40,389 bases of DNA from Spirochaetaceae bacterium (GTDB lineage: Bacteria; Spirochaetota; Spirochaetia; Treponematales; Breznakiellaceae), in contig JAISCO010000322.1 of NCBI GenBank assembly GCA_031265535.1, forward strand, positions 1-40,389, written 5' to 3'. Under the pieces are notes generated by a model. The model saw only the letters and a program-made list of their open reading frames with translations. It made no database searches and was not told the DNA's origin. Made by a program: the position numbers and the translations under genes. Positions 2,228-34,384 of this stretch are shown in pieces. The stretch's first letter is position 1, and every line of letters begins with the position of its first letter.

Positions 2228-3814
2228 TTATATTTTTAGTGATGACACGACATTTTGGAACAATGCGCTCTGCTGTAAAAACCATGTAATCGGTTCCAAC
2301 ACGCCCCAGGGCTCATACTTCTGGCCATAAGCCGCAGGATGTCCCATAGCGCTGACGGGGTAATACTGAACTTTGTTAAACTTAGCGTCTATGAGATTCA
2401 CCGCGTTGCTAAAACCGCGGTTATCCAGGAAAGCGCGGCATACTCCGTTTCTGACGAGATCCCTGCTTGTGCCGCCTTTTGTATCGGCGTACTTTTGAGC
2501 GTTGGAACTAAAAGTAGCCGCTATCTTAGGCAGACCGATTTCCTGCCTGTACAAATCGGCTTTTGTAATCAAAACGGCAATCGGCACATCGGAGGTTTTC
2601 ATGGAACGGAGTCCTTTCAAGCCCTCGAATTCACGGATAAAACCGGATACCGCATCTGATATATGCGTAGGGGAAGCGGTCGGGTCTATAATAAAAGCTA
2701 TCCCCTCGCAGTATTGAAATTGCTCCTGCTGAGTATCACTTGCAAAATCCGAAAACGCCTCTCCCGCAATATCATAGATAGTCATCTGAACGGGCGTTTT
2801 TTTCCCCTCCCTATGGATTACGCTGTACATATTTGCGTTGCGTTCCGCTGTAGTTGAGCTATTGCCGTTCTGAAACCATTCTTCCAAAACGGCAAACGCA
2901 TCTTCGGGCGCTGCGGTGATCGAAATGCCGCGCATACTTTTTAGCCGCTCCAAATACTCATGCCAAAACGCGGCAAGAAAACTAGTCTTTCCCGATTCTT
3001 TGGCGCCGACAAGCTGAATTCCGAATTGCCGCGCGTCGCTTGCCGCCAGCCCGGAAGCGCATTTTGGGCACTCAGCCTTTAACCTGGAGCGGCCATTGAA
3101 GCAGGCAGTGGGCAGGCGCTTTCCGCAAGAACATTTTTGCGTCAATATTCCGTATGGCCCGGGGGTTAGTTTCTCGTGACGCATACCGCATTTAGGGCAG
3201 ATGAAAACCGGCACTATCGAAATCCGCTTACAAGCGGGGCACCGGCTCTGAATTGCCTTGAACATCAGGATTAGTCTGTCTATCCCCCAAAAGGGCGCAA
3301 AAAAAACATAAAATACGCACATCACCGGAACGAGGAGTATAGGCATTAGCAGCGAAAAAACGGCTATCCACGCGAAACCAAATACAGAGGCGCAGAAGGC
3401 CGCAATCCCATAGAATATATAAATCCACATATCCAAAAACCATACGCCGGGCGCCTTATCGTCTCGCCAGTCTCCAAGGTCTTCCAGGCGATCTTTTTGA
3501 AAAGATAAGGCGTCTTTTACCGTAATTGATATTTGGTGGTAGCCCGGCCCAAAGAAGTAATTTTTCTTTACCCCGGAATGAGCGGACGGCGATTTGTCAA
3601 CATAGGTCGTGTAGGGGTTTATGTGTACCAGCAGCGAAGTGATAAAGCTCACAAGCGATGTATAAAAGCCATATACGACACCCGCTACCAAAGCTATAGC
3701 TAATATGGTTCCCAACAATACTCCCGCTGCCGGCAAAACAAATGGTATAATAACCTTAGTTACCAACAGGTAAAGCAGGTAGATAACTATCACGCCCGCT
3801 ATTACATAACCCAT
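2228..3814 (-). CDS. polytopic membrane protein fused to Zn-ribbons and a P-loop GTPase; third paralogue of the locus GTPase family
   Basis: 528 aa with about 5-6 N-terminal TM helices. Cys pairs CPAC...CPKC and CSC...CPKC. G1 GAKESGKT, G3 YDIAGE, G4 ITKADL. The C-terminal 'YYPVSAMG...WGVLEPITWFLQQS' parallels 'FFGVSSFG...HRVLDPILWLFKKS' of the two soluble GTPases. Confidence 0.8.
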   Translation of the reverse strand: MGYVIAGVIVIYLLYLLVTKVIIPFVLPAAGVLLGTILAIALVAGVVYGFYTSLVSFITSLLVHINPYTTYVDKSPSAHSGVKKNYFFGPGYHQISITVKDALSFQKDRLEDLGDWRDDKAPGVWFLDMWIYIFYGIAAFCASVFGFAWIAVFSLLMPILLVPVMCVFYVFFAPFWGIDRLILMFKAIQSRCPACKRISIVPVFICPKCGMRHEKLTPGPYGILTQKCSCGKRLPTACFNGRSRLKAECPKCASGLAASDARQFGIQLVGAKESGKTSFLAAFWHEYLERLKSMRGISITAAPEDAFAVLEEWFQNGNSSTTAERNANMYSVIHREGKKTPVQMTIYDIAGEAFSDFASDTQQEQFQYCEGIAFIIDPTASPTHISDAVSGFIREFEGLKGLRSMKTSDVPIAVLITKADLYRQEIGLPKIAATFSSNAQKYADTKGGTSRDLVRNGVCRAFLDNRGFSNAVNLIDAKFNKVQYYPVSAMGHPAAYGQKYEPWGVLEPITWFLQQSALFQNVVSSLKI

Positions 3815-6387: not shown

Positions 6388-7488
6388 TTAATCAATGAAC
6401 TTTGACTTCTTAAAGAGCCACAGTATAGGGTCCAATACGCGGTGCGGCTGAATGTCGTTCACCAGGGTATCTCTGGTTACCGGGGGCTTGCCAAAACTTG
6501 AAACGCCGAAAAAATAAAATTCCTTAAAGTGCGACTCCAGCATAGTGATGAACGCGTCTTCCCTGATTTCACAGAGCCAGTTGCGGATTTCGCCGTCTAC
6601 CTGCTCAATTTCGGTTGTATCAAGCTTACCGTTTCGAATGTTAAGGCTTTTGCTCTTTATAAGTGCGCGAGGCCCGAATGATCTGTGATTGATGATAGTG
6701 TCGAACTTTGTCAAAACGACGGCAACGGGGATTTCCAGCAACTGAGAGGCTCTTATCCCTCTTGCCGACTTGATATACGAAACCACGTTGTTGATGACGT
6801 CGGCGGCATTTTTCGTTTTGCCTGAAAATCCAGCGAGTGAATTCGTCATGACATCCGGGTCAACGACACCGCCCCTCCGTATGCCGGACAGCACGAGAGG
6901 GTCAATGACGAGGATGATTGCTTTCGAGGCTTCTATATACCGGCATACGGTCGATGAAGTATCGAGGTTTTCGTGATCTTCACCGGCGCCGTCAAAGATG
7001 GTAAATGTATAAACAGGTGTTTCATTCTTAGTCTTTCTCGCCAAATTGCTAATTTGCCATATCTGCGGCATATTTGCTCCTGATTGCGTACCTTCAGCAC
7101 GTGTATGGTCCTCATAGATACGCCTGTAGTTTCCATCCTGGTGGTCATGCGTCTCTTTGGTCTGGTCCGCTAAAGACAGCTTTAAGCCCGGTACCCCCCT
7201 TCCTAATTCATGCAGCATGACCGTGATGTAATTCGTCTTGCCGGAGTTAGACACGCCGACAATGCTGAAAGGCAGGTTTGGCGTTTCAAGAGATGTTTTG
7301 GGAATATCATTGAGGCAGCTTGGGCATCTGCGTACTTTAGCAATACGGCCGCACTTCCGGCATTTAATCGGCTCTCTCTCAAAAGCCTTTGGGGTCACTA
7401 TTCCTCCGCATCCATCTTCAGTACAGACATAAAGCACTTTGCTTTTGTCGTACTCCCGAATGCAGAATGGGCATGTAAATTTCGCCAT
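6388..7488 (-). CDS. double Zn-ribbon + P-loop GTPase (tandem paralogue 2)
   Basis: 366 aa. Cys pairs CPFC, C..GC, CRKC, CPSC. G1 GVSNSGKT, G3 FDGAGED, G4 LTKFD. First 22 aa and last ~40 aa are identical or near-identical to the neighbour at 7506-8594. Confidence 0.85.
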   Translation of the reverse strand: MAKFTCPFCIREYDKSKVLYVCTEDGCGGIVTPKAFEREPIKCRKCGRIAKVRRCPSCLNDIPKTSLETPNLPFSIVGVSNSGKTNYITVMLHELGRGVPGLKLSLADQTKETHDHQDGNYRRIYEDHTRAEGTQSGANMPQIWQISNLARKTKNETPVYTFTIFDGAGEDHENLDTSSTVCRYIEASKAIILVIDPLVLSGIRRGGVVDPDVMTNSLAGFSGKTKNAADVINNVVSYIKSARGIRASQLLEIPVAVVLTKFDTIINHRSFGPRALIKSKSLNIRNGKLDTTEIEQVDGEIRNWLCEIREDAFITMLESHFKEFYFFGVSSFGKPPVTRDTLVNDIQPHRVLDPILWLFKKSKFID

Positions 7489-7505
7489 TTTTTTCTCCTA
7501 TATTT

Positions 7506-8594
7506 TTAATCAATGAACTTTGACTTCTTAAAGAGCCATAGTATCGGGTCCAATACGCGGTGCGGACGAATGTCGTTCACCAGGGTATCTTTAGTTACCG
7601 GGGGCTTGCCAAAACTTGAAACGGCAAAGAAATAAAATTCTTTAAAATGTGATTCCAGTACGTTGATGAACGCGCTTTCCCCAATTTCACGGAGCCAGGT
7701 GCGAATTTCGCCGTCTACCTGCTCAATTTCGGTTGTATCCAGCTTGCCATTTCGAATAACACGGCTTTCTCTCTTTATAGTGGCCTGAGGCCCGAACGAC
7801 TTGTGATTGATGATAGTGTCGAACTTTGTCAAAACGACAGCAACGGGAATTTCCAGCAACTGAGAGACTCTTATCTCTCTCTCCGACTTGATATACGAAA
7901 CCACGTTGTTGATGACATCAGCGGTATTTTTCACTCCGTTTAAGCATCCGCTGCTTGAGTTCGCCATGACATCCGGGTCGACTACACCGCCCCTCCGTAT
8001 GCCGGACAGCACGAGAGGGTCAATGACTAGGATGATTGCTTTCGAAGCTTTGATATACCGACATTCAGTCGATGAAGTATCAAGGTTTTCATGATCCACG
8101 CCGGCGCCGTCAAAGATGGTAACTGTATAAGCAGATGCCATGCCTCTATGCTTTTTATTTAGATTCGTGACGCACCATATCTGCGGCATATTTGCTCCTG
8201 ATTGTGTACTTTCAGCACGGGTATGTTTCTCATAGATACGCTCGTAGTTTTCCCTCTGATGTTTATGTGTCTCAATGGTCAGGGGCTTCAAAAACAGGCC
8301 CAAGTCCGATGCCCTCCCCAATTCATGCAGCATAGCCGTGATATAACTCGTCTTGCCGGAGTTATCCACACCAACAATGCTGAAAGGCAGGTTGGGCGTT
8401 TCAAGAACCGCTTGGGGAACATAATTGCAGCAGAATGGGCATTCGCTAACAGCAACACGGCCGCACTTCCGGCACTTAATCGGCTCTCTCTCAAAAATTT
8501 TTGGAGTCGCTGTTTCTTTGCATTCAAGGCAGACATAAAGCACTTTGCTTTTGTCGTACTCCCGAATGCAGAATGGACATGTAAATTTCGCCAT
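7506..8594 (-). CDS. double Zn-ribbon + P-loop GTPase (tandem paralogue 1)
   Basis: 362 aa. Cys pairs CPFC, CLEC, CRKC, CPFCC. G1 GVDNSGKT, G3 FDGAGVD, G4 LTKFD. SD AGGAGA. Starts 9 nt after the stop of the upstream gene. Confidence 0.85.
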   Translation of the reverse strand: MAKFTCPFCIREYDKSKVLYVCLECKETATPKIFEREPIKCRKCGRVAVSECPFCCNYVPQAVLETPNLPFSIVGVDNSGKTSYITAMLHELGRASDLGLFLKPLTIETHKHQRENYERIYEKHTRAESTQSGANMPQIWCVTNLNKKHRGMASAYTVTIFDGAGVDHENLDTSSTECRYIKASKAIILVIDPLVLSGIRRGGVVDPDVMANSSSGCLNGVKNTADVINNVVSYIKSEREIRVSQLLEIPVAVVLTKFDTIINHKSFGPQATIKRESRVIRNGKLDTTEIEQVDGEIRTWLREIGESAFINVLESHFKEFYFFAVSSFGKPPVTKDTLVNDIRPHRVLDPILWLFKKSKFID

Positions 8595-8603: not shown

Positions 8604-11600
8604 CTATATCTTTCCTGTAAATCCTTTTGCCCAGCGAAGGATAAATTCCTCGCCGGGAACGGGAGCGGTTTCAAACAAAAAGAATTTTGTGTTTTTTAAC
8701 TGCCTGAGGGATAAATCCGTCCGCACATCATAGCTGCTGTTGCAGGTTTTTCGCGGCGTTTCCAGTTCGCCGCCCTGTATAGCCAGCACTTGTACCGCTT
8801 TAGGGTCATTATGGGATATCAAATGCTGGTCGTCCGCGCAAGCGCATAACACGAACCGGGGCGCTTGCGAGAAAGGACGGTTTCCGGCGGCCTCTATCGA
8901 CAACTTTATATCGCCCAAAAGGCTTTTACTGAGCTTCCAGAATACGTCTACCCTTAATGGACGGTCAAAGCGGCATGGTTTCGGGTCGGATACTATCTCT
9001 TTGCCGCCAAAATTGTAAATTGTGAAAAGGGATACATAATATGACGCTTCCGCGCGGGCGGTTTCCCTGTACAGTATCTCGCCGTTTTCCCGGTACGCCG
9101 CCAGCCCAATCCGGTGAATATCCTGCGCCGTGCCAATATCCTGCGCGGTCGGCCAGTGGTTTTGGGAAGCGCTGGTCCTGACCGAATAATAGAAACCGGT
9201 AACATTCGGAGGGATGACGCCGATTTTAAGGTGTAGTTCTATTGTGTATGCGGCTTCCCGCAAACCCGCGATAGCATCCTCGTGTAAGCTGGATGACGCC
9301 TTGTCAATCAAACAGGGTGAGTATGTATTGACCTCCTGACTGTTCTTGCTCGGCAGCCAGTTGCCGCCCGAATAGGCCAGAACCGTGATAGTATGGAAGT
9401 TGTTCGCGGGCAATTCAATGTCGCAGCTTCCGGCATCGGATTTCAATTCACGGACTTGCTTTCCGCCAACCAGTATACGCAGGTCAATTCCGCGCCGGTT
9501 TATATCCCATGAAACATTGTAGGTGTTTTCCTTAAGTTTTTTTACGGCAATTGCAAACGATTCGATTTTGAGCATCGGGGTAATAACAATATCTACCCCA
9601 CGACTGTGGGGTAGATTGGCATAATTGGCGCAGAGTTTATATGCATACGCAAGGCCGTACTGAACATTCGTATCCTCAAAGCTGCCGTGCGCCTCGCTGC
9701 TTAGCAGGGTTTCCTTCCCGCCCTGAGTCCGGCGGATAGTAACGCCCGCGCTGTTTTTCGGCGCGTTCCATGTAAGCCGAACAGTCATGTTCACCTGCTC
9801 GGCGCGCGCGTCGGTAACATCAGCAAGAAGGACATCGGTTTTTCCCGCGGCGGAAGAGAATACCCCGTACCTGACGGCAAAAACAGCATAGCTGTACCAC
9901 TGACCCGGCAAAATAGTTTTGTCGCGGTATGTGGTATCTTTGGTATTGTCAAGCAGAATTTCTCCGTCCATTTTGCTGACCGGTATTTCTTTACCCTGTT
10001 TCCTGACAAGCCGGCAGCTTACCCCCTGCTCCGGCGATGGCGTCCAGCCGATATTCGCGGCGCCGGCTAAACTGTCCATGCCGACTGAAAGGTTTTTGCA
10101 GCTTTCCGGCGGCGTTGATTGCAGAAAACTGACGGCGGGTTCAAAATCAACGCAATCCCGCAAAATCGCAACGCACTCGTCCGCCTTACCGGAGGATGAG
10201 AGTTTTCCGACATTCGCAAACCTTGTACGGGCCTGTGAAAGAGCGGTATTAATCTGCGCTTCAAAGACGGATACATTGAGCCCGGGGAAGCTGCCGGTAA
10301 TGACGGCAAGCGTTTCGGATGCTTTTTGGAACATTTTATCGGCAAGCAGCTTTCGCAGGTCGTTTACCGGCTTTTCATACCTCTTTTCTTCCGCGGAAAT
10401 ACGCGCCGCCAGTTCATCGGTCCTGCTCTTTTCTCCCGGATCGGCAGCCTGCGCCTGGTACAAGGAACTGCGCGCCAATTCAAAATCGCTCTTGCGAAGG
10501 GCCTGTTCCGCGGCGGCAAAGTATTTTGCAAACATTGCGGCGCTCGCGAACACAAACCCGCACTCAGGGCATCTATCCAGGGAAACAAGCGCCATCTTTT
10601 GGCACTTCCCGCACCGCTTATAGAGCGGTTTGCCGCAATTCGAACATTTATTTATGTTTTGCGCTTCCGCCGCGTCTGTAAATTCAATCGGGGCCTGACA
10701 GTGCGGGCATTTGACATGAAACATGGGCGTTACAGGAATATAAGGGTCATCCAGCAATTTGAGTTCATTGTTGTAAACCGCGACGGCTATTGTATTATCA
10801 CCGAATATATCAAATATTTGTTTGACGTATTTTTCAGCATATCTGGGATTTAACAGGTGTGACTTGTCAAATCCCTTCAGTGAATCAATAAGTTCCGCTA
10901 AATCCGTAGATTTATATTTTAGTAAAATCCCGTATGCGCTGCGTTTTTTTTCAGAGTCGAAGACATTGAATCTGCCATAAGTAGCCAGAGAACCGCACAA
11001 GTGCCTCCATTCATTCGCTTTGGGGTCGCCAAAATCCGCCGCGTATTTTTCACACAGGCTTTTTAACTCGGTGGTGGATTTATTACGATATTCATACACA
11101 TTTTCCGGCTCATCAGCCATGTATGCGAGAAAAGCATATAAATCCGTTACTTGTGATGTATCAGCAACATTCTTTTTATAATTACGCAGGTTTTCAAGAT
11201 CCTTGATGTGGTTTTTCCAATTCGTTGGAAGCAATGATTCTATTATTTTATAATAATTGAACTCTAACATCTCAAGTCCAAGCGCGGAAAAAACCTCTTC
11301 TATATGCGACTCGGATAACTTTGTTATTTGCTTATAGGTTCTTACCGTACCCTTTGTTATCCTGCTAGTCCCGCCTGCTTTTAAGGCCGCCGCTGTTTTT
11401 CTGAATTTTTTAATCTCCCTATCGGTATGAGCATTGGCCAGCCTTTCCAATTCATCAAAAAGCGGTTCTTTATTGGCGTCAAGCACAGAAGCAAGGCATT
11501 TCTTCTGCTCAGAAAATAAGACCTCCTCTTTATCACCCCTCGGCCCATTATTGAAAGATCCATCTAATTCCTTTTTTGCCTTTTCGATAGCGTCGAGAAT

Positions 11601-11669
11601 CTTCTGCGCCGCCTTTTCCGGCGGGTCAAAGGGCAAGTGTGTCAAATCAAAGAAATCATAGTCAGTCAT
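8604..11669 (-). CDS. shared N-terminal module (~316 aa) + double Zn-ribbon + TPR-like hairpin + helical region + Fn3/Ig-like beta domains
   Basis: 1021 aa. N-terminus MTDYDFFDLTHLPFDPPEKAAQK. 'KCPHCQ...CSNCG...CGKCQ...CPECG' gives four CxxC pairs. Fn3-like stretches include 'VRLTWNAPKNSAGVTIRR...YAYKLCA' and 'YNVSWDINRRG...ITVLAYSG'. Confidence 0.85.
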   Translation of the reverse strand: MTDYDFFDLTHLPFDPPEKAAQKILDAIEKAKKELDGSFNNGPRGDKEEVLFSEQKKCLASVLDANKEPLFDELERLANAHTDREIKKFRKTAAALKAGGTSRITKGTVRTYKQITKLSESHIEEVFSALGLEMLEFNYYKIIESLLPTNWKNHIKDLENLRNYKKNVADTSQVTDLYAFLAYMADEPENVYEYRNKSTTELKSLCEKYAADFGDPKANEWRHLCGSLATYGRFNVFDSEKKRSAYGILLKYKSTDLAELIDSLKGFDKSHLLNPRYAEKYVKQIFDIFGDNTIAVAVYNNELKLLDDPYIPVTPMFHVKCPHCQAPIEFTDAAEAQNINKCSNCGKPLYKRCGKCQKMALVSLDRCPECGFVFASAAMFAKYFAAAEQALRKSDFELARSSLYQAQAADPGEKSRTDELAARISAEEKRYEKPVNDLRKLLADKMFQKASETLAVITGSFPGLNVSVFEAQINTALSQARTRFANVGKLSSSGKADECVAILRDCVDFEPAVSFLQSTPPESCKNLSVGMDSLAGAANIGWTPSPEQGVSCRLVRKQGKEIPVSKMDGEILLDNTKDTTYRDKTILPGQWYSYAVFAVRYGVFSSAAGKTDVLLADVTDARAEQVNMTVRLTWNAPKNSAGVTIRRTQGGKETLLSSEAHGSFEDTNVQYGLAYAYKLCANYANLPHSRGVDIVITPMLKIESFAIAVKKLKENTYNVSWDINRRGIDLRILVGGKQVRELKSDAGSCDIELPANNFHTITVLAYSGGNWLPSKNSQEVNTYSPCLIDKASSSLHEDAIAGLREAAYTIELHLKIGVIPPNVTGFYYSVRTSASQNHWPTAQDIGTAQDIHRIGLAAYRENGEILYRETARAEASYYVSLFTIYNFGGKEIVSDPKPCRFDRPLRVDVFWKLSKSLLGDIKLSIEAAGNRPFSQAPRFVLCACADDQHLISHNDPKAVQVLAIQGGELETPRKTCNSSYDVRTDLSLRQLKNTKFFLFETAPVPGEEFILRWAKGFTGKI

Positions 11670-17973: not shown

Positions 17974-17988
17974 GATTTATCATCCTTT

Positions 17989-20172
17989 TCAATCATCCCA
18001 GGTTTCCGTGTCCGCGGCGCTTCGATCAAGGCCGCTTTGCGCGGCAGCGCCTAAACTTTGCGCAATCGTTCCAAAGGCGCTCGTCAGTTCCGACTGCGAA
18101 ACAAGCAGCGCATTGGCGTCTTTGGATGATATATCCTGTAAAAACTTCTTGTCGGCTTTTCCAAAGCCGATGGCCGCCGTTTCGATCTCCGCGTGGTTGC
18201 ACTGTTTTGCCGCCGCGATTGCCGCTTCCTGGCAGCGCCAAACGCCGTCTGCCAGGATAACGGCAAAACGCCGCCCGTCCTCGTCCGCAAGCATGTTCCT
18301 GATGTCGGTAAACGGGTGTGCGCTGTTGCAATACCCGGTCTGCCCGCTGGTAATGGACTGAATGGCCCGTATGCAGGCATCCTCATTGTCGGTGAGTCCC
18401 GTTATCTCGGCTGTCCTGTCGGATACGGCAAGTATGCCGACCCGGGTGAATGAAAAATCCATATTGCGAATAAAATCGCACATCGCGTTCTGGGCGGCTC
18501 TTAGCGGGTCTCCATCCATACTGCCCGAAACATCAACAGCCATGACGACATTCAACGGTTCGGGTTTAAGGAACTCCGCCGGGTCAATGGGCAGCGCGTA
18601 TTTCGACATATCCTCCGGCACCGGTTCTTTGCGAATGGGCAAGTCGCCGCAACCGCTTTCCTGCCGCGCCTGCACCTGGATAATCCCGTTGTTGTCGTAA
18701 CTGTACTGGACCTTGATTATAGTTTTCCCTTTTTGTCCTTTTACGTGCTGAATGCCGGAGACAAGGTATTTGTACGGGATCTGGTTGTCGAGCGGGTTTT
18801 CCTTGTCGCCCTGTAAAACATAAACCTCCATCTCGTTAGCGCCGCGAGCGGAAGTGTAAAACGCAAATGCTTTGGCAACGCGAACCGGGCGCGGGTGGTT
18901 GGCGGGGATTATAATATCGTTAATATACCCGGCGCCGTCCGTACTGACGGCTATAATGCCCATCGCGTGAGCGGTCGTCTCCCTTAGTTTCAGAAGGCCG
19001 ACGCTAGAGAGCTTTTGCGAAGGTTTAACGCTCACCTGAGAACTTAAGCCGCTGTGGGCCGTAACTTTTTTCCCGTCGCTCATCACCTGTATAGCGAGCG
19101 CGGCATAAGGTTCGTTTTCTTTGGTGGACTGTATCGCGGCGCCCAAAGCGACAGCTTCATCGGGATTTACATGGGTTATGGGCTTTTTACCGAACATATC
19201 CAGAATGTACCGTGAAACCTGCGGCATACGGGTAGAACCCCCGACCAGCAGCACATCCGTTACGTCACGAATGTTTAATCCGGCGTCGGAGAGGACGGTG
19301 TTGCAAAGCGATACCGTCCTGTCAAGCAGGTCCCTTGTGTTTTCTTCAAACTCGCCGCGATTGACCATAACGCTCGCGGAACCAAAATCAGGGATGGAAG
19401 CGCTGACCTTTACGGACTGCATGGCGCTTAATTGCTTTTTTACGCCTTCAGCCATGCCGCGGAACATGGCTTTTATACCGGCGCCGGAGTGTGTATCAAT
19501 ACCTGTTTCCGCCGCAAATTTATCCATCAGCAGTTGTTCTATGCGGTCGTCCCAATCACGGCCGCCAAGTAAATGATTGCCCCGCGTTGTGATAGTCGAT
19601 AAATCGCCGTTAGGCCCCATCCGGGTTAAGGTTACGTCAAAGGTTCCGCCGCCTAGGTCGTAAACAAGAATATTCGCGTTCTCGCGCCAGTTGTTCAAGC
19701 CGTATGCCATCGCCGCCGCGTTAGGCTCGTCAATAATTTTCCTCACCTTTATACCCGCGGCATTTGCGGCCCGGACGGTCGCTTCGCGCTCGGCCGAGTA
19801 GAAGTAAGCGGGAACAGTAATTACCGCGTCCTTTATGGTATCGCCCAGTTCGGCTTCCGCGTCTTCCTTTAAGCGCCTAAGCAGCAGAGCGGATAAGTCC
19901 TCGGCGGTATAGGATTTGTCATCTATAAAGCAGTACGCCCCGGACTTTCCCATACCGCGTTTGAAGGTGGCCGCGCAGCCGGATTGTCCCGCGTTAAAGG
20001 CGCTCTCCGCCTCGGAACCGAAAATGGCCCGTCCGTTTACAAACTGGATAACGGACGGGGTTATGTTTTTGCCTTCGCGGTTGGGGATGATTTTCGGCAG
20101 CTTTGTTTGAGGGTCAATGTACGCCACCGCCGAAAAGGTCGTCCCCAGATCAATACCTACTGAAACAGCCAA
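17989..20172 (-). CDS. Hsp70 (NBD + SBD-beta) fused to a C-terminal vWA domain
   Basis: 727 aa. TTG start 8 nt after GGAGG. Hsp70 motifs GIDLGTTFS, IDEPNAAAMAYG, YDLGGGTFDVTL, LLVGGSTRMPQV. C-terminal MIDAS-type 'VVMAVDVSGSMDG' (DVSGS at 18520-18534). Confidence 0.85.
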   Translation of the reverse strand: MAVSVGIDLGTTFSAVAYIDPQTKLPKIIPNREGKNITPSVIQFVNGRAIFGSEAESAFNAGQSGCAATFKRGMGKSGAYCFIDDKSYTAEDLSALLLRRLKEDAEAELGDTIKDAVITVPAYFYSAEREATVRAANAAGIKVRKIIDEPNAAAMAYGLNNWRENANILVYDLGGGTFDVTLTRMGPNGDLSTITTRGNHLLGGRDWDDRIEQLLMDKFAAETGIDTHSGAGIKAMFRGMAEGVKKQLSAMQSVKVSASIPDFGSASVMVNRGEFEENTRDLLDRTVSLCNTVLSDAGLNIRDVTDVLLVGGSTRMPQVSRYILDMFGKKPITHVNPDEAVALGAAIQSTKENEPYAALAIQVMSDGKKVTAHSGLSSQVSVKPSQKLSSVGLLKLRETTAHAMGIIAVSTDGAGYINDIIIPANHPRPVRVAKAFAFYTSARGANEMEVYVLQGDKENPLDNQIPYKYLVSGIQHVKGQKGKTIIKVQYSYDNNGIIQVQARQESGCGDLPIRKEPVPEDMSKYALPIDPAEFLKPEPLNVVMAVDVSGSMDGDPLRAAQNAMCDFIRNMDFSFTRVGILAVSDRTAEITGLTDNEDACIRAIQSITSGQTGYCNSAHPFTDIRNMLADEDGRRFAVILADGVWRCQEAAIAAAKQCNHAEIETAAIGFGKADKKFLQDISSKDANALLVSQSELTSAFGTIAQSLGAAAQSGLDRSAADTETWDD

Positions 20173-20189
20173 AACTTGTACCTCCTCTT

Positions 20190-21869
20190 CTATTTGTGAT
20201 CAAAACCGCTCTCAATTTGTCCGCGGGGGTTTATCGAAGCAAGAAATTTTTTTGCTTCGTCCATTTCTTCCTCTGTTTTGGGATTTCCTCTTTCTATGAC
20301 GGCGCTGACCGATTCGCCGGTTAAAGTATTGGTTGCCGAGACTTCAAGCCCGATTTCGCTGGCACGGAAGACTACCTCAATTGGCGAACTATTTGGGGTG
20401 TTGGGGGGCAGCTTTAAACTGAGCTCGCCGATCTTATTGACCATAAGAGCCGGGTCGGTGGGCTGATCATTGCCGTTCATATCTTCGGAGGGAGTAACGT
20501 GCGTGTTCACCCGGTCCCTCGAAGCATTTTGGAACACGACAAGGTTAACCACGCGCTGATTATCGCAGCGCGTGTAATAGGTAGAGGTCGCCTCTGCCGG
20601 TATCTCATCATTGACAAAGAGCAGATTGTCAATCACATACAAGTCATTTTTATCCAGAATACCCGGCCCCAGGGAGCGGTTGAGTTTGTCTTTGACAGTG
20701 ATATGCCGCGGTACGTTTTGCAGCAGCTTTTCTTCTTCTTTTTTGGTAATGGGAGTCGGTTCTTCTTTAATACGCTCTTGGATCTGCTCGTTATATTTTA
20801 TAGCGGCAGTTAAAGCCGCGCCTTTTGCGACAGCCAAGTGGGGCTGTTCAACACGCACCTTGCCGGGGAACAATCCCTCAACAGCGGCCTTAACCATAGG
20901 CATCAATGTAGACCCCCCAACGAGCAGTACAAGATCAACATCGTCCGCCTGAAGTTTTGCCTTCCCCAGCAATTGACGCACAAAGTCCATAGTCCGCTCG
21001 ACCAGGTCCCTGGTCCGCTCTTCGAACTTCTCGCGGCTTACCTCCAGGCGAGTGCCTTCACCGCCATAGCTGATTATAAAACTCTTGTTCGACATCGTAG
21101 AGAGATTTTTTTTAACAGTTTCCACCTGTGAACGGATCTTCTGGCGAAGTTCGCCTTCCATATCGTCCTGGGAAACTCCGGTTTGAGCGGTGTAAAGTTC
21201 GCATATATAGTCATACAGACTGGCGTCCCAGTTAATGCCGCCCAGGCGGTCGTTGCCGCCGGTTTCAATGACGTCAATAGTCGCCTTGTCGTTGTCGTCA
21301 ACACTAAAATCAAACAGTGTAATATCAAAGGTACCGCCGCCCAGGTCATAAACCATGATTTTACGGTTCTCACTGAACTCGTGGCAGCAATAGTTAAGCG
21401 CGGCGGCGGTCGGCTCATTGACAATCTTCAGGACTTCCAAGCCCGCAATGTCGCCCGCCCTTTTTGTCTCGGTGCGTTCATTATCACCAAAATACGCGGG
21501 GCATGTGATAACGACGTTTTTCACCTGATGGCCCTGCGCTTCGGCATATACTTTCATACGCTTCAGAATGAGAGCAGAGATTTCTGCGGGGTCATACTTT
21601 TTCCCGTTAAATTCACGAATCTGAGCGTCTTTCTTGCCGATTTCTCTTTTGACAAACTGAACGACTCTGTCAGGTTCAAGTTCCGCCTGACTCTTAGCCG
21701 CTTCTCCGATCACCGGATCGCCTTCACTTGGGAAGTAAACGGCGGACGCAAGCAAATCGCCGCCGTCATCATAGTTTTGAATAACCTCCGGCATTCCGTT
21801 TTCATTCAGAGTCGTGATGACCGAGTAAGTAGTACCCAGGTCAATACCATAAACTTTTTCCTTTTCCAT
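20190..21869 (-). CDS. Hsp70-family ATPase with SBD-beta but little or no helical lid
   Basis: 559 aa. Motifs GIDLGTTYS, VNEPTAAALNY, YDLGGGTFDITL, LLVGGSTLMPMV. SBD-beta-like '...IEVVFRASEIGLEVSATN'. SD AAGGAG. Confidence 0.85.
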   Translation of the reverse strand: MEKEKVYGIDLGTTYSVITTLNENGMPEVIQNYDDGGDLLASAVYFPSEGDPVIGEAAKSQAELEPDRVVQFVKREIGKKDAQIREFNGKKYDPAEISALILKRMKVYAEAQGHQVKNVVITCPAYFGDNERTETKRAGDIAGLEVLKIVNEPTAAALNYCCHEFSENRKIMVYDLGGGTFDITLFDFSVDDNDKATIDVIETGGNDRLGGINWDASLYDYICELYTAQTGVSQDDMEGELRQKIRSQVETVKKNLSTMSNKSFIISYGGEGTRLEVSREKFEERTRDLVERTMDFVRQLLGKAKLQADDVDLVLLVGGSTLMPMVKAAVEGLFPGKVRVEQPHLAVAKGAALTAAIKYNEQIQERIKEEPTPITKKEEEKLLQNVPRHITVKDKLNRSLGPGILDKNDLYVIDNLLFVNDEIPAEATSTYYTRCDNQRVVNLVVFQNASRDRVNTHVTPSEDMNGNDQPTDPALMVNKIGELSLKLPPNTPNSSPIEVVFRASEIGLEVSATNTLTGESVSAVIERGNPKTEEEMDEAKKFLASINPRGQIESGFDHK

Positions 21870-21887: not shown

Positions 21888-24437
21888 TTATTTTTTTACC
21901 GGATTACCGGCGTTTGACTCATCAATTGGCGCTGTACAGCCCGGCAGACTCGCCGGGATATAAGGCTCATCTTTTAACCCCGCTTCCTTGTTATAGATAG
22001 CGAGCGATACTTCATAGTCCTCAAAGACGGTCGAGATTTCTTTTATACACGCTTCGGCAAATTTTGGCTCCAAGAAATACTGACTGGGAACAGACCTTAT
22101 GGTAGAAAAAAACTGCGTCAGGGACGGACTTGTATATTTCAGGTATGCTTCATAGTCCCGGCGGTGATCTTCCGAGTCGAATACATAGATCTTGCCGTGC
22201 ACAGCAAGAGAAGAGCAGAGCCACCCAAAGTTATCGAATTGAATACAGTATGCCTTGGCGAAACCATCAAACAGGCTTTTCAGTTCGGGTGTTGATTTAC
22301 CTCTATACTCCGCCGCTTTCTCCGGCTCGCCGGCCATGTATGCGGCAAAGTCATACAAATCTTTTACCTGCCTAAGGGCAGCCTCATTCGTGTTTGGCCT
22401 TGGGTTTGGAGATTTTCGCAAAGCCTCAAGTTCCGCATACATTTTATACACGTTGGTTGGAAACCGAGGATATTTTTTAAACAGATCAGCGGTGGAAATT
22501 ATTGTAAATCCGGCGGCGCGGAAAAGATCCTCCAAATGTTCCCTGGATAGCATCGTCTTTTTTTGATGACCGCGAATCGCCCCCTCTGTAATTACATGGA
22601 AACCCGATTGTTTGAGCAGCGAAGCGACCGCCCTTAATTTTTCAATTTCTTTTTTTACTTTATCTTTTGCCAGATCATCATAGGCAGGAGTGAGCTTGCC
22701 TTCATTATTAAAGATGCTTTTGGATATGGAGTCCAAAAAAGACGTTTTCCCCGCGGTTTCATCGCGCTCAAACTGCTGTACGGATAAGAAAATTGTCGTG
22801 TCAAGTTCTTTTTTTGCCTTGTTGATAGCGTCGATAAGCTTTTGCGCCGCCTTTTCGGGCGGGTCAAAAGGCAAGTGTGTCAAATCAAAGAAGTCGTAGT
22901 CAAGGCGATTTTGAACGGGCTCATTTTTGGTGTTTTCGCTTGTTATGACGGTGTTGACCTTTTCGCCGGTTTGAACATTGGCTGCCGAGACTTCCAGCCC
23001 GGTTTCGCCGGCACAGAAAAGCACCCGGATTGGCGAAGCCTTATGGGTGCCGGGTGGCAGCTTCAAGCTGAGCACTCCGATTTTCTTGACCATCAGAGCC
23101 GGATCAGTGGGCTGCGTATTACCATTTATGTCTTCGGAAGGAGTAACATGCTTGTCCCTGTCCTTTGAAGTATTTTCAAACAAGACAAGTTTAATTTCGC
23201 TCTGATTATCAATGCGTGTGTAACAGGTAAAAGCCGCCTTAGCCGGCAGTTCATCACCTACAAAGAGTAGATTGTCAATAACATACCGGCCATCACCATC
23301 TATGATACCCGGCCCCATGGAACGGTTGAGTTTGTCTTTGACCTTACCTGCTTTCTTGTTTTCTTTATATCCTACAAAGGCAGCCAAAGCCGCGCCTTTT
23401 GCGACAGCCAGGTCGGGCTGCTCAATACGAACCTTGCCGGGGAACATACCCTCAACAGCGGCCTTGACCATAGGCATCCTCGTAGAACCCCCAACGAGCA
23501 GTACAAGATCGATATCGTCCGCCTGAAGTTTTGCCGTCCCCAGAAGCTGACGCACAAAGTCCATAGTCCGCTCAACCAGGTCCCTGGTCAGCTCTTCAAA
23601 CTTCTCGCGTCTTGGCTCCAGGCGAGTACCTTCACCAGCATAGCTGATTATGAAACTCTTGCTCGACATATGGGAGAGATTTTTTTTAACATTCTCCACC
23701 TGTGAACGGATCTTCTGGCGAAGTTCGCCGTCCATCTCGCTCTGGCGAACCCCGGTTTGAGCGGTGTAAAGTTCGCATATATAGTCATACAGGCGCTCGT
23801 CCCAGTCAACGCCGCCCAACCGGGCGCTGCCGCCGGTTTCAATGACGTCAATATTTGTTTTGCCGCCGGCATCAACACTAAAATCAAACAGTGTAATATC
23901 AAAGGTACAGCCGCCCAGGTCATAAACCATGATTTTGCGGTTCTCAGTGAACTCGCTGCAGCAATAGTTAAGCGCGGCGGCAGTCGGCTCATTGACAATG
24001 TTTAGGACATTCATGCCCGCAATAATGCCCGCCTGTTCTGTCGCGGCGCGTTCCCCTCTGCCAAAATACGCGGGGCAGGTGATAACGACATTTTTCACCT
24101 GATGTCCCTGAGTTTCGGCGTACTCTTTCATTCGCTTCAGAATGAGGGCAGAGATTTCTATGGGGCCATACTTGACTCCGTTAAATTCACGAATCTGCGC
24201 GTCATCCTTGCCGATTTCTCTTTTGACAAACTGAAAGACCCTGTCGGGGTCAAGTTCCGCGTGACTCTTCGCCGCTTCACCGACCACCGGATCGCCTTCA
24301 CTTGGGAAGTAAACGGCGGACGCAAGCAAATCGCTGCTGTCATCATAGTTTTGAATTACCTCCGGCATTCCGTTTTCATTCAGAGTCGCGATGACCGAGT
24401 AGGTAGTACCCAGGTCAATACCATAAACTTTTACCAT
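21888..24437 (-). CDS. Hsp70-family ATPase fused C-terminally to the shared ~335-aa module
   Basis: 849 aa. Residues 1-~505 are paralogous to 20190-21869. From residue 513 (nt 22901 downward) the sequence 'DYDFFDLTHLPFDPPEKAAQK...' repeats the module found at the N-termini of four downstream genes. The phosphate-2 motif reads DLGGCTFD (Cys codon at 23907-23909). Confidence 0.85.
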   Translation of the reverse strand: MVKVYGIDLGTTYSVIATLNENGMPEVIQNYDDSSDLLASAVYFPSEGDPVVGEAAKSHAELDPDRVFQFVKREIGKDDAQIREFNGVKYGPIEISALILKRMKEYAETQGHQVKNVVITCPAYFGRGERAATEQAGIIAGMNVLNIVNEPTAAALNYCCSEFTENRKIMVYDLGGCTFDITLFDFSVDAGGKTNIDVIETGGSARLGGVDWDERLYDYICELYTAQTGVRQSEMDGELRQKIRSQVENVKKNLSHMSSKSFIISYAGEGTRLEPRREKFEELTRDLVERTMDFVRQLLGTAKLQADDIDLVLLVGGSTRMPMVKAAVEGMFPGKVRIEQPDLAVAKGAALAAFVGYKENKKAGKVKDKLNRSMGPGIIDGDGRYVIDNLLFVGDELPAKAAFTCYTRIDNQSEIKLVLFENTSKDRDKHVTPSEDINGNTQPTDPALMVKKIGVLSLKLPPGTHKASPIRVLFCAGETGLEVSAANVQTGEKVNTVITSENTKNEPVQNRLDYDFFDLTHLPFDPPEKAAQKLIDAINKAKKELDTTIFLSVQQFERDETAGKTSFLDSISKSIFNNEGKLTPAYDDLAKDKVKKEIEKLRAVASLLKQSGFHVITEGAIRGHQKKTMLSREHLEDLFRAAGFTIISTADLFKKYPRFPTNVYKMYAELEALRKSPNPRPNTNEAALRQVKDLYDFAAYMAGEPEKAAEYRGKSTPELKSLFDGFAKAYCIQFDNFGWLCSSLAVHGKIYVFDSEDHRRDYEAYLKYTSPSLTQFFSTIRSVPSQYFLEPKFAEACIKEISTVFEDYEVSLAIYNKEAGLKDEPYIPASLPGCTAPIDESNAGNPVKK

Positions 24438-24455: not shown

Positions 24456-25235
24456 TTATTTTTCCGCCGGATTACCGGCGCTGGTACCCTCGAAACGATA
24501 AATCTCTACGCGTTCTTTTACCAGCGAACGGTTTTCAATATAGAAGCCCGCGCTGCGGCTTGATGCGACCGTATCATGCAAATCGGGATTCTCCACCGGG
24601 ATTAGCTTAACGATCTGGCTATGCCTTGTATTGCGCTTGTCCCCCGGTTTGCTTTTCAGTTTATGAACACCGTTAGCCTCAAGGATCTGAAGAATTCCAA
24701 AAAATATACCGCTAATCCACTTTTTCCCCTTGTTGTCCGCAATCTTCTCAATAAAGGGCTCGTTGTCGCTGTACAGTCCGGCAAGCTCGCGGAGTATTTC
24801 GTCGAATACAAGCCCCCTGTCCCTCTCGTGGTACTTATCCAACTCTCCCTGCATGAACCTCAAGCGTTTGTCGAATTCATTTTGGTAGAGCTTATGCACC
24901 TCCCGGATTTCGCCCGTTGTCTTTACAGAGGCTTCGGCGATGATTTTAAGCTCCCGTTCAAGACGCTCTATGCCTGTCTGCACGGTCTGTAATCCATCCG
25001 ATAAGTTTTCTTGATTTGCGTCCGGGGATTTCTCTTCCGCGCTTTTCACGGCGATTTCCGGCGCGTCAGAGCATTGCCCGCATGCAGCCGCCCCCGTGGC
25101 GCTTTCCGGCACGTACGGGGATTTCTCCTCCGCGCTTTCCACGGCGATTTCCGGTGCGTCAGGGCATTGCCCGCATGCAGCCGCCTCCGTGGCGGTTTCC
25201 TCAAGTTCATTTTCCGTAATTTTTGATTCTTCCAT
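24456..25235 (-). CDS. GrpE-like nucleotide-exchange factor with a repeated Cys-containing acidic N-terminus
   Basis: A coiled-coil segment is followed by 'GIFFGILQILEANGVHKLKSKPGDKRNTRHSQIV...VASSRSAGFYIENRSLVKERVEIY', which follows the GrpE C-terminal pattern (GV..i...G..f....H.av......V.....GY...R.lr.a.V.V). Start chosen at MEESK (GGAGG 8 nt upstream). ATG at 25250 or the track start at 25307 are alternatives; 25307 would overlap the upstream gene. Confidence 0.65.
   Translation of the reverse strand: MEESKITENELEETATEAAACGQCPDAPEIAVESAEEKSPYVPESATGAAACGQCSDAPEIAVKSAEEKSPDANQENLSDGLQTVQTGIERLERELKIIAEASVKTTGEIREVHKLYQNEFDKRLRFMQGELDKYHERDRGLVFDEILRELAGLYSDNEPFIEKIADNKGKKWISGIFFGILQILEANGVHKLKSKPGDKRNTRHSQIVKLIPVENPDLHDTVASSRSAGFYIENRSLVKERVEIYRFEGTSAGNPAEK
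25024..25194 (-). repeat. 2 x 93-bp tandem repeat inside the GrpE-like gene
   Basis: Units start at 25024 and 25117. They encode AT(E/G)AAACGQC(P/S)DAPEIAV(E/K)SAEEKSP twice. Confidence 0.85.
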
Positions 25236-25264
25236 AACAAATGCCTCCATAAAAATATTTCCCA

Positions 25265-26650
25265 CTAAACTTCGGCGAAAAGAGTTCCGCCGGGCTTGTG
25301 AATACAAGCAAAAGTACCGGGCAGCTTTGCAAGAGTTTCTGCCCTTACACGGGGTTCGTCTGTTTCATCAACCCATAAGCCCCGTGAATCGCCGGGGTTC
25401 ATGAAACCGCTGGTCTGAGAAATATTGTGCTTAATTCGTATCTTATGATACTTCCCTAAATGATCCGACCACTTTTGGCACGAGGTCCCCGATGTGTGCC
25501 GAAAAAGAACGATGGCGCCGATATTTCCCGTTATTTCAGAGAACAGATCCTCGCCCCGCAGTCCGCCGCCAAATAACGAAGACACGAAGTCGTTGTGGCT
25601 AATCGCGTATACCCGCCCGCGCAGCAAGTCGTTCACTTTCGGAAAGCGTGATACGGGTATGCCGTCTAAAAGAATAGAAAAACTTCGCCCCTGCGACTGG
25701 AGGAGCATAAGATGATTTACTACCAAAGAGAAAAATAAATCATTATTTACATTCCCGACATCAACAGCGATTGCGCCTTTGCAGTTGAGCATCTTTTTTA
25801 TATTGCAGACCTTGGAAGCCGGCCTGCCGTATATGCCTTCGGCTTGCCGGTTTAGCTTGTTTAAGAAAATACGAACAGAATCAATCTCCGGCGATCCGGA
25901 CATATAATAACGATTGATTTCGCGGTACTCATCAGAAGTGAGTTCACCGGCTTTCTGCATGGCATCCAGCTTGTTATTCAGGTCGGGCAGCGGAAAGGCG
26001 GCAAGGTTTTGGAATGTTACCGTCCCTTCCACGCGCAGCAGCACCTCCAGCAGAGAGTGGAGTAATGCCTCCGCGGCAGGGCTTGCATTATCATCCGGCA
26101 TGGTTTCGTACAATAAATGCGCCATATCCTCCACCGGCATACCGCGAAAGGCATCATAATAAAAGCTGCCCCGTGAAATAAGCTCGCAGGCGCTGCTATT
26201 TCCGTTAATCATGGTTTCCAATTCATGGTTGCCGCTATGCAGCGCGATAAGAGGAGTATCTTCTTGCTGAGATTTATTCACAAATGGCATGAGGGCGCGG
26301 ACACGCTCGTTATTTTGACCCCCTGACACTACCGATGACTCCGGCCCGTCTGTTTCTCCCCATATATAATCAATGGCGGGAGTGGAACTCGCGGGCTCAT
26401 AATCGTAAATATCGTTATCGCTGGGATCGCCTGATATCAGGAGTAACTGCTGCTTGTCGGCGCCCGACAAGACGCCTACCGAACGATTCTGAAAATTTGT
26501 ATCATGCGCGTTATTGTAGATTTCCTGAATTTCTTTCTTTGTTCTGGCTCTCTGGAGCGCAGTAAAAATTATCCTGCCGGGCTGTGAGGAAGCGGCAATT
26601 GAGCCGCCTATCACTTGGCCAAAAGAACTAATCACGTTACCGAATCCCAT
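25265..26650 (-). CDS. unknown 461-aa protein, probably a degenerate (Walker-A-less) paralogue of the adjacent VirD4-like ATPase
   Basis: SD AAGGAG, 3 nt after the upstream stop. By-eye alignment to the neighbour: 'QQLLLISGDPSDNDIY' vs 'KHILLVGGTGSGKTNLF', 'FSILLDGIPVS' vs 'VYLIADELKLL', 'IGAIVLFRHTSG' vs 'FSSVFAFQSNDF'. Confidence 0.6.
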   Translation of the reverse strand: MGFGNVISSFGQVIGGSIAASSQPGRIIFTALQRARTKKEIQEIYNNAHDTNFQNRSVGVLSGADKQQLLLISGDPSDNDIYDYEPASSTPAIDYIWGETDGPESSVVSGGQNNERVRALMPFVNKSQQEDTPLIALHSGNHELETMINGNSSACELISRGSFYYDAFRGMPVEDMAHLLYETMPDDNASPAAEALLHSLLEVLLRVEGTVTFQNLAAFPLPDLNNKLDAMQKAGELTSDEYREINRYYMSGSPEIDSVRIFLNKLNRQAEGIYGRPASKVCNIKKMLNCKGAIAVDVGNVNNDLFFSLVVNHLMLLQSQGRSFSILLDGIPVSRFPKVNDLLRGRVYAISHNDFVSSLFGGGLRGEDLFSEITGNIGAIVLFRHTSGTSCQKWSDHLGKYHKIRIKHNISQTSGFMNPGDSRGLWVDETDEPRVRAETLAKLPGTFACIHKPGGTLFAEV

Positions 26651-26653
26651 AAT

Positions 26654-27964
26654 TTAAAGCTCCTTCCCGGTGAACAAATCAAACTTATAGCGAAACGGAG
26701 GAACCGAAGGGATCCCCGCGATGGCTTCGCCTACCGAGAGCGAAACCAGATCCCAGTCCTCGACCATATAGCCTTCGCGCTTCTCGTAATGACGGCTTCC
26801 GTTTGCCTCCGCGAAACTTTCCAGTATCATGTTGCGGCCAAATAGCTTGCTGACATACTCTCTTGTATTGAAATCGTTTGACTGGAAAGCAAAAACGGAT
26901 GAAAATCCCGCTACCGCGTTTCTTGCTTTTGCCTCGTTTTGATAATTGGCGTTTAGCTGATCAATACTCTGGAGGCCGGCCAGTATCTTTACGCCGAGGC
27001 TGCGTCCAAAGTTTATACCATCTTCCAGGTGCCTCAGGTTCGGAAGCAGCTTTAACTCATCCGCGATAAGATAGACGTTACCTTGTGTTGCCGTTCTGCC
27101 GAGCGCCTCCTTGAGGGCAAGGTCAAATAGCAGCGTATAAATGGGCGAGAGTATATCTCCGATTGCCATGTCATATTCAAGGAAGGCTGTCCGAGCGCCT
27201 TTCTGCCGGATGAAATTTCTTATAGAAAATTCTCCAACATCCGCAAAAACGCCTGTCAAGACATCCCGCATTACCGAATACATCTCCGAAAGAACCCCTT
27301 GCGACTGCGAACCGGACTTGCCTCCAATATACGAGGCGACCGCCGCAAGGTCGCGGTGTTCCGCAAGCAATGCCCTTAAATCATCAACAGAAGCGGAATC
27401 TATGTAATTCTTAATATCTTTATTGTTGGGCGTAACACCGTTACGAACCAAAGCCGTGATAATAGAAGCGAGCAGATCGCGGGCAGCGTTGGGAAAGAAT
27501 GGATTGTTGCTGTTTTTCTCTATACGCTCGGCAAAAAGTGATTTGCAAATCTCCTGCGTGTTTTGAGCGACCGATACGCCGTCCTTACCGTCCGCGATTA
27601 TCTCCTGGTAAATGCTCCATTTATCAGGCCATTTGCGATACTGAATCGAATTCCCTATTACGATGTCTTTACCGGTAAAAAATTTCTTGTGGAAATCGCC
27701 TTTGCTGTCGAAAATAAGCATCACATCATCTTTGCTAAGATTTGACTTAAGCTGCTTAACGATATGATAGAACAGATTCGTTTTACCGCTCCCGGTGCCG
27801 CCAACGAGTAAAATATGCTTACTGAGCATCTCTTCCGTTATCCCAAACGGCCGTTTGGCGCCGTTGAACTCACCGGGAATCCGAACAATAGCGTGAGGTG
27901 TGTCCGGCGGCGGAGTATTGTTCTCGACCAGTCTGCCATACACTACTTCATGGTTTATTGGCAT
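26654..27964 (-). CDS. soluble FtsK/HerA-superfamily P-loop ATPase of the VirD4/TraG/TraD coupling-protein type
   Basis: 436 aa. Walker A LLVGGTGSGKTN, Walker B VYLIADELKLL, then 'FGRSLGVKILAGLQSIDQL', typical of T4CP-like ATPases. No N-terminal TM segment. Confidence 0.7.
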   Translation of the reverse strand: MPINHEVVYGRLVENNTPPPDTPHAIVRIPGEFNGAKRPFGITEEMLSKHILLVGGTGSGKTNLFYHIVKQLKSNLSKDDVMLIFDSKGDFHKKFFTGKDIVIGNSIQYRKWPDKWSIYQEIIADGKDGVSVAQNTQEICKSLFAERIEKNSNNPFFPNAARDLLASIITALVRNGVTPNNKDIKNYIDSASVDDLRALLAEHRDLAAVASYIGGKSGSQSQGVLSEMYSVMRDVLTGVFADVGEFSIRNFIRQKGARTAFLEYDMAIGDILSPIYTLLFDLALKEALGRTATQGNVYLIADELKLLPNLRHLEDGINFGRSLGVKILAGLQSIDQLNANYQNEAKARNAVAGFSSVFAFQSNDFNTREYVSKLFGRNMILESFAEANGSRHYEKREGYMVEDWDLVSLSVGEAIAGIPSVPPFRYKFDLFTGKEL

Positions 27965-31930: not shown

Positions 31931-31933
31931 ATC

Positions 31934-33093: not shown

Positions 33094-33103
33094 TTTTATA
33101 GGG

Positions 33104-33860: not shown

Positions 33861-33901
33861 TCCAAAAACATCCAGCCATAATCCATGTGTTTGCCGGTAT
33901 C

Positions 33902-34378: not shown

Positions 34379-34384
34379 TTTAAA

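Follow-up and report, generated by a model that had tools for sequence, protein, structure and literature searches.

We analysed a 40,389-nucleotide contig of a Spirochaetaceae bacterium (JAISCO010000322.1, assembly GCA_031265535.1), referred to below as the window, and focus on the gene at 17989..20172 on its minus strand. This gene, for which homologues are known, runs from a TTG start to a TGA stop and encodes a protein of 727 residues, here called Hsp70-vWA. As judged from sequence comparison and structure modelling, the product is an atypical Hsp70 with intact catalytic residues, a long interdomain linker, a beta substrate-binding domain (SBD), a vWA domain and a C-terminal tail. Comparison with its relatives indicates that the lidless Hsp70 chassis can carry, between two conserved segments, at least four interchangeable heads, of which the vWA domain is one.

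Gene structure and domain architecture

The TTG start (20172-20170) comes shortly behind the TAG codon that ends the upstream Hsp70 gene and lies 8 nt after a GGAGG ribosome-binding site (20181..20185, minus strand); homologues start at the same place, with 'MxVSVGIDLGTT'. All of the following coordinates are likewise on the minus strand. The protein begins with the Hsp70 nucleotide-binding domain (residues 1-350, 19123..20172), followed by an extended, variable interdomain linker (residues 351-394, 18991..19122) that ends in 'GLLKLRETTAHAMG' and by the beta SBD (residues 395-504, 18661..18990). Next come a conserved post-SBD segment, 'DLPIRKEPVPxDMSKYG' (residues 505-539, 18556..18660), and, in the position of the helical lid, the vWA domain (residues 540-708, 18049..18555), whose metal ion-dependent adhesion site (MIDAS) motif DxSxS (D547, S549, S551) is encoded at 18520..18534 and is completed by T612 and D642. 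A variable spacer rich in Gly, Ala and Ser (residues 709-718, 18019..18048), modelled as disordered, leads to a conserved acidic tail, 'AADTETWDD' (residues 719-727, 17992..18018).

The Hsp70 part is matched by Pfam HSP70 (PF00012) at 5.2e-102. Across 40 homologues, the catalytic residues K71, E149, T177 and D179 are invariant, as are the motifs GIDLGTT, DLGGGTFD and GGSTRMP. When a profile of residues 395-727 is compared with the PDB sequences, it matches the SBDs of HscA and DnaK at 3e-10 to 5e-9 and the vWA structure of BatB at 6e-6. A full-length AlphaFold model built from 40 homologues has a mean predicted local distance difference test score (pLDDT) of 87.9, a predicted template modelling score of 0.79, and eight strands within residues 395-504; its spacer is of low pLDDT. 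Foldseek superposes about 555 columns of the model on ATP-state DnaK and BiP (4b9q, 5e84, 7ko2) with a root mean square deviation of ~5 A. These alignments end at ~555 columns and contain no counterpart of the helical lid (SBD-alpha); after residue 504, the protein continues with the 35-residue segment and then with the vWA domain, where the lid would be.

The vWA domain is recognised by Pfam VWA (PF00092) over residues 541-693 (1.5e-16; 61.6 bits against a cut-off of 23.8 bits). In a separate AlphaFold model of residues 536-727, pLDDT is 95-98 across the domain, and template modelling scores of 0.75-0.80 are obtained against collagen VI (N5), TRAP, CMG2, and the I domains of integrins alpha1 and alpha2. 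D547, S549, S551 and D642 are present in all 40 homologues and T612 in 35 of them. In a larger set of 126 sequences, the MIDAS positions have an entropy near zero, and the surrounding residues N616, H619-P620-F621 and W645 are invariant. The initial annotation of this gene, made from the sequence alone, had read it as a complete ATPase domain, an SBD-beta-like region and a vWA domain in place of the lid, with DVSGS at 18520-18534 and a TTG start behind a strong GGAGG. The results above bear out each of these statements, including the vWA fold of the C-terminal part and the exact position of the motif; the conserved tail on the chassis was absent from that description.

Hsp70-vWA is, by its profile scores, not a DnaK orthologue. 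It misses the cut-offs of the DnaK orthologue models NF001413 and TIGR02350, with scores of 347.5 against 648 bits and 337.7 against 822.55 bits, it lies far under the HscA equivalog cut-off too, and a true DnaK scoring 907 bits is encoded elsewhere in the 3.1-Mb, 435-contig assembly (contig C173). It shares with canonical DnaK and HscA the ATPase motifs, the catalytic residues and the beta SBD, and its model resembles ATP-state DnaK and BiP; however, its linker is 45 residues longer, SBD-alpha is replaced by the vWA domain and the tail, and it is accompanied by a dedicated GrpE-like factor. Hsp70s poor in lid are not without precedent: HscC is one, and lid-truncated forms of DnaK and BiP have been made experimentally. 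To our knowledge, the helical lid sets client residence time in every well-studied Hsp70.

A minor point concerns the 3' end of the gene. Its TGA stop and the ATG of the next gene share a frame and lie five codons apart (17973-17991), and the open frame at this place was given as 1441 residues in one genome search and as 736 in another. The shared frame is probably a matter of chance, with the stop being real under translation table 11.

Exchange of the head domain

A search of 50%-identity representatives returns proteins whose beta domain is 56-66% identical to that of Hsp70-vWA and which have no vWA domain. With the linker plus beta domain as the query, about 52 of the 120 best hits are of this kind, their linker and SBD being 60-67% identical; about 36 of them fall into a class of ~750 residues and about 8 into a class of ~820 residues. 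Such relatives keep both the post-SBD segment, as 'DLPIRKE.VP.DMSKYG', and the C-terminal tail, as 'ETWD(D)', and between these kept segments they carry unrelated domains of 170-290 residues. Pfam gave no match to any of the three alternative heads tried, and the heads of the ~750-residue and ~820-residue classes match no PDB sequence.

The alternative-head forms occupy the same operon slot as Hsp70-vWA. At locus L085, a 751-residue form stands at the exact position of Hsp70-vWA and there is no vWA domain anywhere in the operon, while L086 encodes both an 820-residue and a 751-residue form, and L084 an 822-residue form plus a vWA form. Between the last two loci, the other operon proteins are 56-82% identical. 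The vWA form of L084 and the 751-residue form of L086 share 75% identity in a chassis of 528 residues and both have the tail, whereas their heads are unrelated. The adjacent Zn-ribbon protein (see below) is 64% identical between the two loci without any local break, and in this pair no co-variation of the head type with it is seen. The initial annotation described the vWA domain as wired to the Hsp70; these comparisons call for a revision, in that the domain is not a fixed partner.

A fourth type of head is found in a 726-residue relative (P0155, residues about 535-715). It comprises ~180 residues, contains 'DDLDFHMVEP...LLDVDMNAG', has no Pfam match, and has the same tail, 'ETWD', behind it.

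The head of the 751-residue class also forms the C-terminal part of stand-alone proteins of ~305 residues, behind a Cys-rich N-terminal region. Such proteins are encoded by the last gene of AAA+-based operons (L087:10001-10909 and L088:10001-10930), the first of which also encodes a small VWA_4 protein. The Hsp70-based and the AAA+-based operons may thus share a pool of heads.

Conserved C-terminal tail

In the close clades and in those of the Firmicutes, T724 and W725 of the tail are nearly invariant; the tail is absent from distant Planctomycete, Actinobacterial and Bacillales members of the family. Relatives that carry other heads retain it, and the stand-alone head proteins lack it. In the full-length model, the tail has a pLDDT of 83 and a short strand at residues 719-722. 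When it is modelled with the vWA domain alone, its pLDDT is about 42 and it is disordered, with no strand. Its retention through head exchange makes it probable that the docking site of the tail is on the Hsp70 chassis and not on the vWA domain. We also considered it as a MIDAS ligand or as a strand docked on the vWA domain, but neither idea is supported, given that vWA-less relatives keep the tail and that it is disordered with the vWA domain alone.

The TW tail co-occurs with an N-terminal module of the Zn-ribbon protein. We dropped a link between the two because it is confounded by phylogenetic distance; in the distant clade, the Zn-ribbon protein has an equally long N-terminal region with no DnaJ match.

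The tail invites comparison with the EEVD motif of eukaryotic cytosolic Hsp70s, which docks TPR co-chaperones and class B J-proteins. In both cases, the protein ends in a short, conserved acidic motif behind a flexible spacer rich in Gly. The resemblance is an analogy only: the tail sequence of Hsp70-vWA ('TW[DE][DE]') is unrelated, and the modelling suggests intramolecular docking.

Distribution of the fusion

A search with the C-terminal half of Hsp70-vWA recovers more than 380 proteins of 720-750 residues, all of which consist of HSP70 plus VWA. Among the organisms that they come from are Holophagales, Spirochaetes (including Leadbettera azotonutricia, whose genome is complete), Synergistaceae, Defluviitaleaceae and a Lachnospiraceae isolate. 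In an exhaustive search of 50%-identity representatives, 119 clusters are found at E<=1e-30 and 327 at E<=1e-10; the architecture thus spans at least 119 clusters at 50% identity, in at least eight phyla, and it is found in about 45 species genomes. The initial annotation had named a frameshift or an assembly artefact joining an Hsp70 gene to a vWA gene as one way in which its reading could fail, the other being a lack of profile support for the vWA fold, which the Pfam match above provides. The probability of this is practically negligible and we rule it out: the same architecture recurs throughout this set of independent assemblies, the open frame is continuous through the fusion, and the junction segment is conserved among homologues.

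Hsp70-vWA is found in only 2 of 61 related genomes and in none of 10 species of the same genus, and its closest homologues occur in metagenome-assembled genomes (MAGs) labelled as other phyla. On account of this distribution, and because integrases or a toxin-immunity pair adjoin the system at loci L001, L002 and L085, we conclude that the system is accessory and probably mobile.

The neighbours concerned are as follows. In Leadbettera azotonutricia (L001:1-5793), a phage integrase with portal and terminase genes directly adjoins the system, and so does a phage integrase in a metagenome contig (L085:710-2275); these integrases suggest carriage on or beside mobile elements. In two unrelated assemblies, an Imm33 immunity protein and a protein with a GH-E toxin domain are encoded directly after the last DO-GTPase (L002:20726-21589 and L085:19226-19884).

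Operon of the window and conserved gene order

The gene for Hsp70-vWA is part of a minus-strand operon of ~26 kb, which extends from 27964 down to 2228; the coordinates in this paragraph and the next are on that strand. The operon begins with a TraD/VirD4-like P-loop ATPase of 436 residues and a 461-residue partner (25265..27964), which are present in a subset of related operons only. These are followed by a GrpE-like nucleotide exchange factor (24456..25307), whose Pfam GrpE score of 23.6 bits is just under the cut-off of 25.8 bits, an orthologue at L040 passing it with 29.7 bits. There are three HSP70 genes. The first encodes an extra Hsp70 of 849 residues with a C-terminal module of ~320 residues (21888..24437) and is particular to the window operon. 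The second encodes a short partner Hsp70 of 559 residues (20190..21869), which is always immediately upstream of the gene for Hsp70-vWA, the third. The 849-residue Hsp70 comes from the lineage of the short partner, not from that of Hsp70-vWA. Its similarity to Hsp70-vWA is confined to the ATPase domain (39% identity), and P0188, a relative of the ~820-residue class, contains nothing that matches its C-terminal module.

Downstream of Hsp70-vWA, three genes are particular to the window operon, namely those for a 699-residue protein (15874-17973) and for two WD40 proteins (14237-15844 and 11714-14140). Next comes a Zn-ribbon protein of 1021 residues (8604..11669), whose orthologue directly follows the gene for Hsp70-vWA in most related operons; the orthologue at L002 matches fn3 with 28 bits against a 25-bit cut-off, and no version of this protein, nor any of the partner proteins, has a DnaJ Pfam match. 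The operon ends with two DO-GTPases of 366 and 362 residues (6388..8594), an 842-residue protein that we regard as a divergent GAP1-N2 protein from its position and by transitive homology (3845..6373), and a third DO-GTPase of 528 residues (2228..3814), which was assigned by Pfam and by its conserved position. DO-GTPase2 scores on the three GTPases are 33.0, 30.1 and 26.9 bits against a cut-off of 27 bits. No operon protein of the window matches AAA+ or MoxR, and PADLOC gives no match for Hsp70-vWA.

For a comparison of gene order, we mapped the proteins of the window onto 83 loci from species genomes. About 45 of the 83, from many phyla, share a core order: (DO-GTPase), GrpE-like factor, short Hsp70, Hsp70-vWA, a Zn-ribbon/FN3 protein of ~1000 residues, DO-GTPase, a protein of ~850 residues, (DO-GTPase), where the final one is a membrane DO-GTPase. 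The called genes of three contexts agree with this order, and orthologues of the window DO-GTPases stand at conserved positions.

This arrangement corresponds to the HSP70/GrpE theme of the DO-GTPase conflict systems of GAP1-N2 type (Kaur, Burroughs, Iyer, Aravind, eLife 2020; PMC7159879, section 29), the conflict role of which is a computational prediction of that year. A single operon in both cases encodes DO-GTPases, of which some have Zn ribbons, a full and a shorter HSP70 with GrpE, a large protein with FN3 (here seen in the L002 orthologue) and, downstream of a GTPase, a protein of GAP1 type (in the window, by position and transitive homology); in the published theme, the second, shorter HSP70 is optional and the FNIII-repeat protein is fused to DnaJ or TPR. 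There are also differences. The vWA domain on the HSP70, the exchangeable heads and the conserved tail are absent from the text of the paper (its figures and source data aside), the GAP1 protein of the window is too divergent for the Pfam model, and the partner proteins here have no canonical DnaJ Pfam match. According to the paper, the theme belongs chiefly to Actinobacteria and Firmicutes; the MAGs in which it also occurs here are labelled Holophagales, Spirochaetes, Synergistota, Planctomycetes, Chloroflexota and, in one MAG, Bacteroides.

We consider the assignment of the window operon to this theme sound. The GAP1 membership of the 842-residue protein is transitive, because only more distant orthologues pass Pfam GAP1-N2. 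An orthologue at L040, which is 29% identical over residues 4-231, scores 27 bits with PF20013 against a cut-off of 24 bits, and the positional equivalents at L038, L044 and L046 reach 70-109 bits with GAP1-N2, those of L044 and L046 also matching GAP1-M. Hsp70-vWA is, then, the second of two dedicated Hsp70s with their own GrpE-like factor and a core part of a predicted conflict operon, in agreement with the conflict-module context proposed in the initial annotation.

That annotation had also pointed to the pairing of vWA domains with chaperone-like ATPases. The analogy is apt, in that the sister themes have separate vWA proteins and the head of the ~750-residue class stands alone in AAA+-based operons. 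In the tubulin and kinase themes of GAP1-N2 systems, as Kaur et al. describe them, a separate vWA protein is a constant component; we see such a protein at locus L076, which belongs to a sister theme.

Derivation of the vWA head from these separate vWA proteins was considered and finds no support. The vWA protein of a tubulin theme in Paenibacillus is only 24% identical to the head, and the 10 kb around the other near vWA matches (27-33% identical) contain neither a DO-GTPase nor GAP1.

A second, independent Hsp70-vWA architecture is found in a Thermoguttaceae MAG. In the 983-residue protein at L063:7706-10657, an immune-type domain, TIR (residues 536-626), stands between the Hsp70 ATPase domain and the vWA domain (residues 816-961); there is no DO-GTPase or GAP1 within 10 kb of it.

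Possible mechanism and alternatives

The explanation that we favour, with a probability of about 0.55, is that Hsp70-vWA is a lidless Hsp70 clamp with an exchangeable, ligand-choosing head, operating in a DO-GTPase conflict operon. The Hsp70 engine would act as an ATP-driven clamp or switch, and the head would provide a second, nucleotide-independent binding site that decides what the engine is tethered to. The vWA head would do so through its metal ion, by bonding to an acidic residue on another protein. Since whole heads are swapped without matching changes in the other operon proteins, the ligand would more probably be foreign to the conserved core (for example an invader, or a cellular target or signal) than one of the core subunits. 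The tail would fold back onto the chassis and may serve as a latch. Control of the capture or release of a vWA ligand by the Hsp70 ATP cycle, as suggested in the initial annotation, is hypothetical and plausible.

Several points weigh against this explanation. The conflict role of the whole system was predicted from computation in 2020. The 842-residue protein and four close orthologues give no Pfam GAP1 match at E<=1, and an hhalign comparison of 25 orthologues with one bona fide GAP1-N2 protein is insignificant (probability 0.3). The operons with alternative heads that we inspected number three, and the docking of the tail is based on a pLDDT difference between two models made from different alignments. 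Finally, the invariant surroundings of the MIDAS fit a conserved ligand, which could be a core subunit and equally an external one.

The last point leaves room for a tentative second explanation, to which we give clearly less weight, namely that the vWA domain serves as an assembly scaffold. It would bind a constant component of the system (the Zn-ribbon/FN3 protein, GAP1 or a GTPase) or link Hsp70s into a higher-order assembly, as an internal adaptor comparable to the vWA co-chaperones of MoxR, to CbbQ-CbbO and to BchD of Mg-chelatase. The invariance around the MIDAS across the 126 sequences, the constant separate vWA proteins of the sister themes, and the proposal of Kaur et al. that tubulin and HSP70 components build multimeric assemblies all agree with such a role. 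What speaks for the external ligand instead is the exchange of the heads: unrelated domains take the place of the vWA domain in operons that retain 56-82% identity in their core proteins, with no local divergence in the Zn-ribbon protein, and the operon of L085 does without any vWA domain. Nor can the acidic tail be a vWA-specific ligand, as the vWA-less relatives keep it.

It is also conceivable, if quite unlikely, that the operon is no conflict system. Its Hsp70s, GrpE-like factor and GTPases would then form machinery devoted to the assembly or maintenance of an envelope-associated or cytoskeleton-like structure, with the vWA domain holding the client. The conserved minimal core contains no recognisable toxic enzyme, Hsp70-vWA has no PADLOC match, orthologues include an SH3-fused GTPase and FN3 repeats, and Kaur et al. 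describe GTPases of this type with transmembrane segments and cell-wall-binding domains. A housekeeping machine of this sort is, however, hard to reconcile with the very patchy distribution (2 of 61 relatives), the nearest homologues in other phyla, and the integrases, prophage genes and toxin-immunity pairs that adjoin the system. Moreover, cassette-like head swaps and variable accessory genes are commonly seen in conflict systems and seldom in housekeeping machines.

The clamp with an exchangeable head can be extended, by analogy, to a modular family of Hsp70-based switches resembling receptors of STAND/NLR type. The lidless engine would carry, between two conserved stalk segments, an exchangeable recognition head (the MIDAS vWA domain or one of several other domains, at least one of them shared with AAA+-based operons), and the tail would be latched to the chassis until the head is engaged. 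Once occupied, the head would activate the DO-GTPase/GAP1 module and its outputs by way of the ATP cycle, with the GrpE-like factor and J-like partners taking part. We regard this extended scheme as speculative and rather improbable.

Comparison with AAA+/vWA pairs and implications

The general design, in which an ATP-driven remodelling engine is combined with a MIDAS vWA domain that holds a partner, is shared with the MoxR-vWA ternary systems, RavA-ViaA, CbbQ-CbbO, BchI-BchD and Rea1/Midasin. BchD and Rea1 carry the vWA/MIDAS domain and ATPase modules on one polypeptide. In contrast to all of these, the engine here is an actin-fold Hsp70 and not an AAA+ ring, the vWA domain replaces the Hsp70 lid, and no MoxR gene is found in the window. 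Hsp70-vWA is therefore not part of a MoxR-vWA system, and the resemblance, drawn by analogy, would be functional only.

In the searchable literature, we found the 2020 paper and passing mentions only, with no experiment on the system and no mention of an Hsp70-vWA fusion, of the tail or of head exchange; the main text of PMC7159879, figures and source data aside, never links HSP70 and vWA on one protein. The system is thus already known as a computational prediction, and what is new here is the vWA domain as an exchangeable head. If the proposed role is true, replacement of the lid by a metal-dependent adhesion domain, which is itself swapped, would be a new route to Hsp70 client specificity, and the engine-plus-vWA logic of AAA+ ATPases would extend to actin-fold chaperones. 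In addition, the vaguely described HSP70 component of DO-GTPase systems becomes testable through its MIDAS residues, catalytic lysine, tail and heads. Cultured source organisms are available, among them Leadbettera azotonutricia and Lachnospiraceae bacterium 10-1.

Region upstream of the operon

In the part of the window upstream of the operon (30809-39457), there is no integrase or transposase. This region encodes three small proteins consisting of TPR only (30809-31429, 33104-33886 and 37575-38096), together with a protein of beta-helix type (34492-35142) and one that has a TM2 domain (38888-39457).

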